Positions 5,992-39,137 of a DNA stretch of 64,000 nucleotides are shown here, in pieces. The notes under the pieces are model-generated. The model ran no database searches. It saw nothing but the letters and a program-made list of their open reading frames with translations, and was not told the DNA's origin. Position 1 is the first letter of the stretch. Each line of letters starts with the position of its first letter. The translations under genes were made by a program, and so were the position numbers. The stretch is from Ophelia neglecta (Eukaryota): contig OZ260662.1 in NCBI GenBank assembly GCA_965285935.1, positions 101,060,001-101,124,000 of the forward strand, read 5' to 3'.

Positions 5992-6166
5992 CATTTTCGT
6001 GCAGGCCTCGTTGAGGGTTCTGTGGAGGAAGGTGTCCCCCTGGTTGGTACCGGCCGGACATTGGGGCTGCTCCATGTTCTTGGAGTCACAAACGAAGTTT
6101 TCAGCAGCTGTGGTCCTATCTCTAGATACCTCCAAGGTTATACTATAATAGTCAGGTATCGGGTGT
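5992..6166 (-). CDS. Internal coding exon (175 nt, phase 2-0) of the TNFR-Cys-module protein: (R)HPIPDYYSITLEVSRDRTTAAENFVCDSKNMEQPQCPAGTNQGDTFLHRTLNEACTKM
   Basis: tttttttttcag acceptor, ATG|gtcagt donor, open frame, and phase match to exon 7061-7337 (AG+A = Arg). Confidence 0.85.
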
Positions 6167-6626
6167 CTGAAAAAAAAAATTTAGTACACATACACTAACG
6201 GACACGGCAGAGGTAAGCTTCATCATAACTGAAAAATGTCTATGAATACATTAAAAGTATTGTTCAATACACCCTGATGCAATGCCAAATATTGGGGATT
6301 TCTTGAAACGAGTTGCAACCTTGATACTGGATATGTTTTCCAATAAACAGGGGTGCTCAATAATTATTTTCTTACAAGCTTACTTAAAATTAGGGTATTT
6401 GTTTTGATTTTTGTGGACCTGAAGCTAACAGTTCCTTATGAATATGATTTGATACAATATTTGTGATTCTGGATTTTGCTCTCTCTGCCCTGTATCCATT
6501 CCTGTTTATCCAAGTCACTACAATTAAAAGGTTGGTAACCAAATCTAATTTCAAAATACAACTGGAGCATTCTAGACATGAAGTATGTTGGAAGGCAGCA
6601 GCTGTAGTGCTACTGGAAATGGTTCA

Positions 6627-7083
6627 GACAAAATTTAGGATCACGACCTCTAGTAGTTTCAGACTATTTTTTAGGGTCATTACCTATAGTTGTTTCAGAC
6701 TATTTTTAGGGTCATTACCTATAGCAGTTTCAGACTATTTTTAGGGTCATTACCTTTAGCAGTTTCAGACTATTTCTAAGGTCATTACCTATAGCAGTTT
6801 CAGACTATTTCTAAGGTCATTACATATAGCAGTTTCAGACTATTTCTAAGGTCATTACATATAGTGGTTTCAGACTATTTTGGGTCATTATCTAGAGTAG
6901 TTTAAGACTATTTTAAAGCTTAATTACCTATTACAGTTTAAGACTATTTTAAAGCTTCATTACCTATAGTAGTTTCAGACAATTTTTAGGGTCATTACAT
7001 GTGGTGGTTTCAGACTATTTTTGGTCATTACAGTTTCAGACTATTTTATAGCTTCGTTACCTGCAGTGGTTGCGGACTATTTT
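6627..7083. repeat. ~35-bp minisatellite (TAGGGTCATTACCTATAGCAGTTTCAGACTATTTT) whose last unit overlaps the exon/donor junction at 7060/7061
   Basis: CAGAC recurs at 6660, 6696, 6731 and 6766. The unit at ~6953 matches 7050-7083 at 27/34 positions. Confidence 0.9.
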
Positions 7084-7337
7084 GCTGAACTTGGTTTTAT
7101 CCTCGCTGTTGTTTGGATTCCCCAACATATATTTATTGTCACTTTCATGGTCGCCATCTTCATACTCCGGAATCAGATGGACATTAAGTATGCCGATATT
7201 AACTTCAAGGCCAGACTCGCGAATCCAATAGAAGTCCGAGGCCTGGGTCATATCAGTAACATAATATGTAGTCTCCAGGTTCCTAGTGCTGTGTAAATCC
7301 TCCAGGAATAAATTGTCAGAAGCTTCTACTTTGAGCC
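7061..7337 (-). CDS. Internal coding exon (277 nt, phase 1-2): LKVEASDNLFLEDLHSTRNLETTYYVTDMTQASDFYWIRESGLEVNIGILNVHLIPEYEDGDHESDNKYMLGNPNNSEDKTKFSKIVRNHC
   Basis: Core of ORF 7057..7353; tttccgtttcag acceptor, CAG|gtaacg donor; phases match both neighbours. Confidence 0.85.
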
Positions 7338-14668: not shown

Positions 14669-14740
14669 GCATGCACTCGCGGTCACTGGTCGCCCCACAC
14701 GGCCTGGCTTCATACATAGATCCTTTACATTTGGTGCATT
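14669..14740 (-). CDS. Internal coding exon (72 nt, phase 1-1), TNFR-Cys-like module: (E)CTKCKGSMYEARPCGATSDRECM
   Basis: cttcttgcag acceptor, gtaagt donor, and a C-x2-C-x4-Y-x4-C-x4-DRxC pattern typical of TNFR cysteine-rich modules. Confidence 0.9.
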
Positions 14741-15024
14741 CTGCAAGAAGGTAAACATTCAATTTTAAGCATTTTGTTGACAACATTGAGTAATGAAGCA
14801 GAGCCTCAATCAGAAGGTGATGTAGTTAATACAAATATCCATTACCGCAAACACTAATAATCTGCCATCCGCTTACAATTGTAGTTAAAAAAAATGTGTG
14901 GGTCTTATGTTGAATAATATTAGGAATGAAGCTCAACTGTGGTTTGATCAAATATCTAGTCATATGATAGACATTAGATGTAAACTTTGTCTTGAAGCAA
15001 CACAAACATGTTTGTGATGGCATA

Positions 15025-25270: not shown

Positions 25271-25345
25271 CTTGGCAGACTCTGTCCCCGAAGTTCGAGC
25301 AGGGATGGGCCTCAAACGTGCCAGGCGGACACCCGGTGCTGCATG
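25271..25345 (-). CDS. Internal coding exon (75 nt, phase 1-1), TNFR-Cys-like module: CSTGCPPGTFEAHPCSNFGDRVCQ
   Basis: tttgttttag acceptor, AAG|gtaaga donor, and a CPPGTF...PC....DRVC pattern typical of TNFR cysteine-rich domains; part of ORF 25191..25394. Confidence 0.9.
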
Positions 25346-37003: not shown

Positions 37004-37849
37004 TCATTTCACTAAGTCCTCTGGCCCGAAACCCCAAAATTCCTCGCCATCGTCGTCGGACAACGCAGCCGGCTCAAAATCACTGCTGTCAGAATCATTG
37101 TCAGTGTCAATAGCTTCCCACAAAGCATCTTCTTGTGTACCATCCAATGCGTTACTGATGCCAGTCTTCAGGAACGACTTTTGGATGGTTTCACTGCTGA
37201 TGGCAGCCCAAGCGTCTTTTACCCATCCTATAATAACCTCCTTTGTTGGGGAGCGCTGGTGTCCGGCTGGTGTGTAAGTGTGGCTGCCCTCAACCATCCA
37301 TTGCTGCCACATAGCTTTGATCTTATCCTTGAATGGTTTGTTGAGGGCAACGTCCAATGGCTGGAGTATCGAAGTGAGGCCACCTGGTATCACCGCTGTA
37401 TCCACTAAACGACGAGTCAGCTCGTTCTTGACAGAGTCCGTCAAGTGGCCACGGAAACTGTCCCAGACTAGAAGTTTTCTTTTGTTGGATCCCAGGGGAA
37501 ATACAGAACGTATCCAAGCAAGGCAGCCATCCTCGTCCATCCACCCTTTTGCTTGGACCTTGGCTACTACGCCAGGTTGACGGCAAGAATCTCCCAGCTT
37601 TCGGACGCCTTTAAAGATTACATGCGGAACAACTTTCCCGCCATCCGCTGTGCAAGTCAGCACAGCTGTGAATCCCTTCTTGTCGGCCCCGGTTGTTCTC
37701 ACTTGTATTGTCTTCTCTCCCTTCTTGTTGAGGGTTTGGGTGGCCGGACTGTCGAACTTCATCGGCGTCTCATCCATATTGTAGATTTGCGACAAAGCAT
37801 ACTGATGCCGACCGCGCATTTTGAGCACAAATCTATGGAAGCTGAGGAT
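37004..37849 (-). CDS. Transposase exon 2: DDE_1 catalytic domain (NMDETP / LVWDSFRGH / LQPLDV) and acidic tail
   Basis: ORF 37004..37828 extended to the tttttacag acceptor (ILSFHRFVLKMRG...). There are 35 residues between the second and third Asp. Confidence 0.93.
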   Translation of the reverse strand: MLSFHRFVLKMRGRHQYALSQIYNMDETPMKFDSPATQTLNKKGEKTIQVRTTGADKKGFTAVLTCTADGGKVVPHVIFKGVRKLGDSCRQPGVVAKVQAKGWMDEDGCLAWIRSVFPLGSNKRKLLVWDSFRGHLTDSVKNELTRRLVDTAVIPGGLTSILQPLDVALNKPFKDKIKAMWQQWMVEGSHTYTPAGHQRSPTKEVIIGWVKDAWAAISSETIQKSFLKTGISNALDGTQEDALWEAIDTDNDSDSSDFEPAALSDDDGEEFWGFGPEDLVK

Positions 37850-37892
37850 CTGTAAAAATAAAAATATAAATTTAATTTTTTTTGCTGGTAAG

Positions 37893-38075
37893 AGTGGTCG
37901 ACATTGGCAATATGGTTGGGTAATAAAACTATCCCAATGATCCGTGTAATATTAAGTAAATATATTATCATGATGGTAATTTATAGTGGTCGACATTGGC
38001 AATATGGTTGGGTAATAAAACTATCCCGATGATCCGTGTAATATTAAGTAAATATATTATCATGATGGTAATTTA
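37893..38075. repeat. 92-bp tandem duplication inside the transposase intron
   Basis: AGTGGTCGACATTGGC... at 37893 and 37985; near-identical copies. Confidence 0.95.
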
Positions 38076-38190
38076 GTTTCGTAACCAAATAAATTAGAAT
38101 GATCTGGATGATATAGCCTACTTAAAATAGGGGAGTTTGGTAGTCCATCTAATTATTACATGTATTTTATCTTAAGATTTTAAAACGCAC

Positions 38191-38625
38191 CTTTTCCTCA
38201 TGGTCCTTGGGTAACCGTTGAGCTAGGGAAGTTCTTCGCCGGGTGGTAAGGGATTGACGGGCCTTGAACTTCCCTAGCCAGCCCTCTGAGGCCTTGAAGT
38301 CGGTAAGACCCCGAGCGGTAGCTTCCTTCTTAGCTTGAATCTTCAGGAGTGGCCCAGAGACGGCATGCCCCTCCTTGCGTTGAAGATCGACCCATTCGGC
38401 CAGGGTGTCCTCAAGGCCTTGGTCACGGACTTTTCGGCCGGCTCCCTTCAGCTGTTTTGCATTCCTTGGCTGTTCTTGCAGTTTTTCCGACGACTTAACC
38501 CAGTCTCGGACTTGGCGATCTGACAATCCAAATTCACGGGCCGTAGCCCGAGCATTCTTCAACTCGGCGAACCGAGCAATCACTTTCAGCTTTTGGCTGA
38601 CTGTGTACGATCTTCTTGGCGGCAT
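38191..38625 (-). CDS. Transposase exon 1: Brinker-like HTH plus CENP-B/Tc5 HTH DNA-binding domains (145 aa)
   Basis: MPPRRSYTVSQKLKVI...AREFGLSDRQVRDW and FKASEGWLGKFKAR motifs. The phase-0 donor AAG|gtgcgt joins exon 2 in frame, giving 426 aa. Confidence 0.92.
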
Positions 38626-39137
38626 CTTGCTTCATGGATTGTGGTATATCTTCGATGTGTAGCGCAGTGAAAAGTCGTGATATGCATATAGCGAATCTCA
38701 AGAGGTGAGTGATCAGTTGAAAACCGAGCTGCCATTTATACGTTGTCCTCAAAATTAATTGCAAAGCCACCCATGTTTTTGTAAAGTTACAAAAGCAATT
38801 TAGATACTCGACATCTACTCATGTGTGTTTATTTTGTACTATTTATGGATACAGGATTGGCCAGTGTAGACTAACTGTCGGCTTTTTGTGTGGTCAGTCC
38901 GTGATCGTGGTAGATGAATCCACAACATGGCGGGCCATTGGCGCCGTAGTGTGAATGCAGTTGCTGCTTCGTGGCAAACTCACACCTTTGATGACCAGCC
39001 CTGTCTGCGTTCACGCCTACCGTAGTTTGATTGCGTATTAATTGGGAATTGTAAACCAACAGTCTGCCAATTGTGTTTTTAGTCAGAGATAAGAGTGTTA
39101 GGATTAGTAAGCTTACACAAACCTGCACAATGCGATC

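Follow-up and report, generated by a model that had tools for sequence, protein, structure and literature searches.

On the minus strand of the 64-kb window (the whole stretch of DNA analysed here), a coding exon ends at a 5′ splice site and is followed by a minisatellite that repeats donor-like sequences. Two questions arise: whether the array was copied from the exon-intron junction, and whether the copied donors influence expression of the gene, both of which a preliminary description of this DNA had proposed. The array (6601-7047) has a unit of 35 nt, comprises 12 units and one degenerate unit, and fills the first half of the 894-nt host intron; about a dozen units at ∼ 35-nt spacing after the real donor had been reported. 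TRF called a period of 35, 11.7 copies and 85% matches over 6623-7031. We split the array into units by hand and named the junction copy U0, the units U1-U12 and the degenerate one U13 (Table 1). Six of the 12 units keep AG/GTAAT (the slash marks the splice position), in line with the earlier statement that many do, and seven keep AG/GT. U1 carries a 10-nt deletion and has lost the AG, U2, U6 and U7 read AT/GT, and U5 has no GT. The junction and unit sequences quoted earlier are correct, and the 27/34 match between the junction and the unit near 6953 (6986-6953) was reproduced. That unit does keep the AAGCT flank, as had been stated. However, the flank does not follow the proximal-to-distal order implied by the statement that distal units lack it: it is restricted to U3 and U4 and absent from U1 and U2, the units nearest to the junction. 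The array is therefore a mosaic without a clean proximal-to-distal gradient. In three contig sets, from one sample and none spanning the array, the only differences were one base substituted at 6981 and one lost at 7011, both in X2 only; the sets gave no alternative joint and no evidence of copy-number variation.

Table 1. Features of the locus and junction arrays elsewhere in the genome. Positions are those of the window unless a locus name is given; the slash marks the splice position.
Feature	Position	Strand	Remarks
Conserved coding exon ending ...KIVRNHC-R, phase 2	7061..7337	-	5′ edge 7337 inferred from pyrimidine tract, AG and phase
Host intron, GT-AG, 894 nt	6167..7060	-	donor G 7060; acceptor 6167/6166
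Next coding exon, R-HPIPDYY...CTKM	5992..6166	-	full-length homologues contiguous across the join
Junction copy U0	7048..7083	-	last 23 nt of exon and first 13 nt of intron; authentic donor CAG/GTAACG, G at 7060
In-frame TAA reached immediately when the donor is read through	7057..7059	-	...NHCR*
Units U1-U12	6636..7047	-	12 units, 26-36 nt each
AG/GTAAT donor-like sites in array	G at 6963, 6927, 6788, 6753, 6718, 6683	-	
AG/GTCGT donor-like site in array	G at 6647	-	
AT/GTAAT donor-like sites in array	G at 6998, 6858, 6823	-	
Degenerate terminal unit U13	6601..6635	-	19/36 match to U0
Upstream exon with TNFR-type cysteine repeat	14670..14741	-	tblastn, edges approximate
Upstream exon with TNFR-type cysteine repeat	25272..25343	-	tblastn, edges approximate
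Second donor array of mirage type in host gene, 57 nt ×15	L004:1207-2079 (G000:C2:101051207-101052079)	-	homology to P0063
Third donor array of mirage type in host gene, 34 nt ×13	L004:4515-4961 (G000:C2:101054515-101054961)	-	homology to P0063
Four arrays across junctions of a single dynein heavy chain gene, two at donors and two at acceptors, in 20 kb	L092-L093 (G000:C1:7924001-7944000)		
Dynein heavy chain intron array, 34-nt unit ×61	L081:2891-4952 (G000:C1:86803891-86805952)	-	

The ORF of the exon has 121 relatives at E ≤ 0.001. Its full-length homologues are uncharacterised proteins of 1,360-1,860 residues from a nemertean, an annelid and molluscs, and where 7061 is joined to 6166 they read CR-HP, CK-HP or CR-DP without a break. 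TNFR_c6 was detected in five of the six full-length homologues scanned and EGF in two; Pfam found no domain in the two flanking exons, and the domain calls come from the full-length homologues. Judged by these proteins, the host gene is predicted to encode an uncharacterised spiralian EGF/TNFR-repeat protein. The ESM Atlas gave no usable match for the exon or for the homologue P0063.

The alignment of U0 with the unit consensus scored 25, compared with 11.0 ± 2.0 (maximum 20) for dinucleotide shuffles (n = 10,000). Without gaps, 27 of 35 positions match, whereas the best of 126,852 other windows on both strands of the 64-kb stretch reaches 21; the exonic 23 nt alone match at 18/23, against a background of at most 15 (126,876 windows). 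Alignment against shuffled sequence had been put forward as the check on the claim of origin, and the junction exceeds all 10,000 shuffles and all background windows. The unit pattern occurs six times in the genome (762 Mb), always inside the array, and a DNA search of the genome with the unit, of a type that skips very common words, returned one match, the array itself. These searches indicate an origin local to this locus and not from a dispersed family; we rejected a repeat of dispersed or mobile type as the source, since the unit is found only here. It could still be argued that a repeat already present, or a mobile one, came to lie at the end of the exon and provided the donor, or merely resembles it, given the many unrelated minisatellites in the window (56 TRF rows) and the eight of 35 positions at which U0 differs from the consensus. 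However, apart from the similarity beyond all controls and the confinement of the unit to one locus, the last 23 nt of the exon encode conserved residues, and some array-free relatives, L132 and L137 among them, are near-identical to the window there, agreeing with it at almost every one of the last 20 exonic bases. These comparisons largely refute the landed repeat already, and we regard it as highly improbable.

Relatives of the locus were collected in a metagenome scan, in which 80 of 200 confirmed stretches were kept, 60 of them distinct; one was left out, its contig ending before the junction. Among the 59 informative distinct relatives the donor is GT in 58 and GC in one (L130, position 627, at the conserved junction). 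None of the 59 has an array at the homologous donor, at 61-89% protein identity and in short-read contigs, which can break at repeats. L128 has an unrelated two-copy 14-mer at the junction. Aligned locally with the relatives' introns, the unit scored at most 23, compared with 70 for the self match. The donor at 7061/7060 is thus authentic and older than the array. Since the exonic bases are near-identical in array-free relatives, the direction of copying is from exon to array. The relatives do not date the array closely, because they are 61-89% identical in protein. On the 27/35 match, the ancestral donor and the locus-specific unit, the proposal that the minisatellite derives from the exon-intron junction is borne out.

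By its sequence features the array would belong to the ‘mirage’ minisatellites, a class already described in amphioxus and human: it has minisatellite-sized, head-to-tail units, its terminal unit spans the authentic boundary, many of its intronic units keep the splice signal and it is locus-specific. PMC3087553 and PMC3902484 describe amphioxus mirages in Adh3, the globins BflGb6 and BflGb9, troponin C and PGBD5, which leave splicing undisturbed. As in those genes, an exon-intron boundary has been tandemly duplicated into the intron, the 35-nt unit is of a length seen in Adh3 (10-72 bp), the splice signal is kept by many but not all units, the boundary copy is excluded from homogenisation, and several arrays occur in one gene. 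The present array differs in coming from another animal group, the named homologues of the host protein being spiralian. Normal splicing and length instability have been shown for the amphioxus arrays.

Donor strength was estimated as the pairing energy to the 5′ terminus of the genome's own U1, a crude proxy. The true donor pairs at −8.0 kcal/mol, whereas the 10 GT-bearing decoys that were scored have a median of −6.5. Donor scoring had been advised as a check on function, and it went against the decoys: all 10 are weaker than the true donor, none equals it, and no copy matches it at positions −3 to +6. As the preliminary description had it, read-through of the true donor meets a stop immediately, and use of any decoy would give a premature stop, since the TAA is kept, with nine mapped exons downstream. 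By the usual rule, a premature stop followed by further exons makes a transcript a substrate of nonsense-mediated decay (NMD). However, the immediate stop is not specific to the array, because 13 of the 59 array-free relatives have one too; it is generic, the consequence of a phase-2 donor that starts with GTAA, GTAG or GTGA.

From the decoys and the stop it had been inferred that the array could be a splice-site VNTR whose length tunes expression, more units diverting more transcripts to decoys and thus to NMD or a truncated product. The stop kept in each decoy product, with exons still to come, and the six units with AG/GTAA would permit this. The arrangement is already known, and so is the idea of tuning; human genes bear on both (PMC1557585 and PMC5954066). 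In F7 intron 7 the first unit of a 37-bp VNTR spans the donor; only this first donor is used, and functional pseudo-sites stay silent, even when strengthened, unless the upstream site is destroyed (PMC1557585). Under such first-site selection, added distal units cannot matter. As cited in the same paper, IFI6 (6-16) and CBS, the latter with its junction VNTR in IVS13, use two proximal pseudo-sites besides the true donor, which favours tuning; in LMNB2 and PDGF, again as cited there, no pseudo-site is used. The F7 array resembles the present one in its boundary-spanning first unit and in a donor reiterated at about 35-nt spacing. However, its pseudo-sites are identical to the true donor, whereas all scored decoys of the present array are weaker; its unit contains four exonic bases, whereas ours contains 23 and is ∼ 25% diverged from the junction; and it is a proven VNTR, whereas ours is known from one sample.

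ABCA7 intron 18, with a 25-bp VNTR, is the case closest to the tuning model (PMC5954066). There too a donor-bearing unit adjoins the exon, and use of the next donor, which retains one unit, leads to a premature stop and an NMD target; VNTR length correlates inversely with expression and also alters skipping of the next exon. However, the one-unit isoform makes up 2 ± 1% of transcripts and is unaffected by VNTR size, so that expression and exon skipping follow length while decoy use does not. The ABCA7 unit begins at the GT, whereas the present unit includes 23 exonic bases. With F7 and ABCA7 as contrary precedents, no decoy as strong as the true donor, the two nearest decoys the most damaged, the array missing from 59 relatives and the stop generic, tuning by array length is unsupported, and we consider it very unlikely.

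The same arrangement recurs elsewhere in the genome (Table 1). Junction arrays lie at three of the 12 mapped donors of the host gene. In the 57-nt array, 14 of the 15 copies are identical to the true donor at −3 to +6, and read-through stops at once there too; in the 34-nt array the true donor comes close to the consensus, and the scored copies are all weaker, none of 12 being identical. A further sample covered 846 kb in the surroundings of myosin, dynein and kinesin genes, with 666 exon-like matches and 73 arrays (period at least 10, copies at least 2.5, score at least 80); one repeat-derived match was left out, leaving 665 exon matches. By inspection, arrays span junctions at eight donors, ∼ 1% of those sampled (8/665 exon matches), and at five acceptors, whereas a script counted 14 junction arrays, including one acceptor case that fails to reach the AG by ∼ 20 nt. 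A single dynein gene accounts for four of the 13. In the dynein heavy chain intron with the 61-copy array, whose unit is mostly exon sequence, 52 of the 60 copies scored agree fully with the true donor at −3 to +6. One unit upstream, the exon of that array holds a sequence nearly the same as the first bases of the intron, possibly a microhomology seed. With 14/15 and 52/60 identical copies, the perfect decoys in several arrays suggest that decoys are tolerated without being weakened.

These arrays also bear on the idea that the present one is mildly harmful and under purifying selection, its leaky decoys having been weakened or its length acting indirectly on exon recognition, much as in ABCA7. 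Such selection would account for the lost AG of U1, the AT/GT of U2 and the lack of any copy that matches the true donor at −3 to +6, and the decoys of the host gene's 34-nt array are likewise all weaker. It is not general, however: in six of 12 scored arrays the first decoy to be found equals the true donor, and selective weakening of first decoys as a general rule was rejected on these 12 arrays. The donor core is also conserved at 91.6%, compared with 89.4% for the exonic and 84.9% for the intronic flanks, in pooled counts where units are non-independent and one array of the 12 is open to doubt. We think purifying selection an unlikely account of this array.

The reading we favour, and hold to be quite probable, is a mirage minisatellite in which ∼ 35 bases spanning a conserved donor were duplicated into the intron, the copied donors being likely almost silent and the array a tolerated by-product. 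A single local duplication across the junction, by slippage or unequal exchange, would have left the exon intact and its donor in the 5′-most copy. The intronic copies would then have drifted and been homogenised among themselves, while coding constraint held the copy embedded in the exon. U0 and U10 differ at seven of their first 30 bases; six of the seven differences are transitions and both CpGs have become TpG, which looks like drift followed by homogenisation. The CpG observed/expected ratio of the window is 0.29, and the intronic units have changes in common that the exon copy lacks. By analogy with F7, ABCA7 and amphioxus, the spliceosome would pick the first donor beside the defined exon; the silence of the decoys is in this sense carried over from mammals and amphioxus. 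Rare decoy transcripts, probably at most a few percent, would carry the TAA and be cleared by NMD, which would mask any cost, so that the array could persist and turn over. The identity of 52 of 60 decoys in dynein fits such tolerance. The two nearest units without AG/GT and the lack of a decoy equal to the true donor could nevertheless reflect selection against decoys and not pure neutrality. Pseudo-site use in IFI6 and CBS and the length effects in ABCA7 (PMC1557585 and PMC5954066) also speak against a mere by-product.

A further point against the by-product reading is that junction arrays exceed random placement under a tight null, although not under a loose one. Under the loose null, nine donor arrays were observed and 5.9 ± 2.3 expected (123/1000 placements reach the observed number), and six acceptor arrays compared with 5.8 ± 2.2 (524/1000). 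Under the tight null (56 arrays, 609 kb), 14 were observed and 6.1 ± 2.4 (P 0.0025) or 8.5 ± 2.7 (P 0.035) expected. Exon edges in this test were taken from HMM matches, and the sample of genes is compact and biased; whether junctions hold an excess of arrays varies with the null, and a twofold excess is possible without being established. A wider claim would be that junctions seed or retain minisatellites at about twice the chance rate, that thousands of donors carry decoy ladders and that copy number sets a measurable NMD leak at some, this one included. We give that claim little credence; if true, it would mean a heritable control of dosage across the whole genome and would offer, outside mammals, a natural system for testing how 5′ splice sites are chosen. 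The single locus matters little, the class being known from amphioxus and humans; the value of the finding lies in its scale: ∼ 1% of sampled donors, three of 12 donors in the host gene and ∼ 60 donor copies in one dynein intron. The genome is suited to testing, in a spiralian, the first-donor selection seen for F7 in mammalian cells, and whether the number of decoys sets transcript level.

Several further repeats and rearrangements were seen in and around the host gene. The mapping placed no exon in the stretch (25400-64000 of the window and L010-L012) that separates the TNFR exon at 25343 from an EGF exon of the gene ∼ 22 kb past the window; this stretch is either a minisatellite-rich intron of ∼ 60 kb or holds unmapped small exons. 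A 32 nt ×62 array (L012:1949-3941; G000:C2:101145949-101147941) ends ∼ 35 nt before the acceptor of the EGF exon, and its unit contains a branch-point-like CTAAC motif and does not include the acceptor. The exon that ends at the junction has internal tandem repeats in two other sequences, threefold and possibly frameshifting in the relative L169 (1525-1701, 59 nt) and fivefold and in frame in the protein P0002 (10 residues). Downstream of the host gene, on the other strand and in tail-to-tail orientation, is a diverged paralogue (L006-L008; G000:C2:101015848-101033878, plus strand; tblastn). At 37004-38631 of the window, on the minus strand, two ORFs of 315 and 154 aa resemble a pogo/Tigger-type DDE transposase that a 92-nt duplication at 37893-38075 has split.
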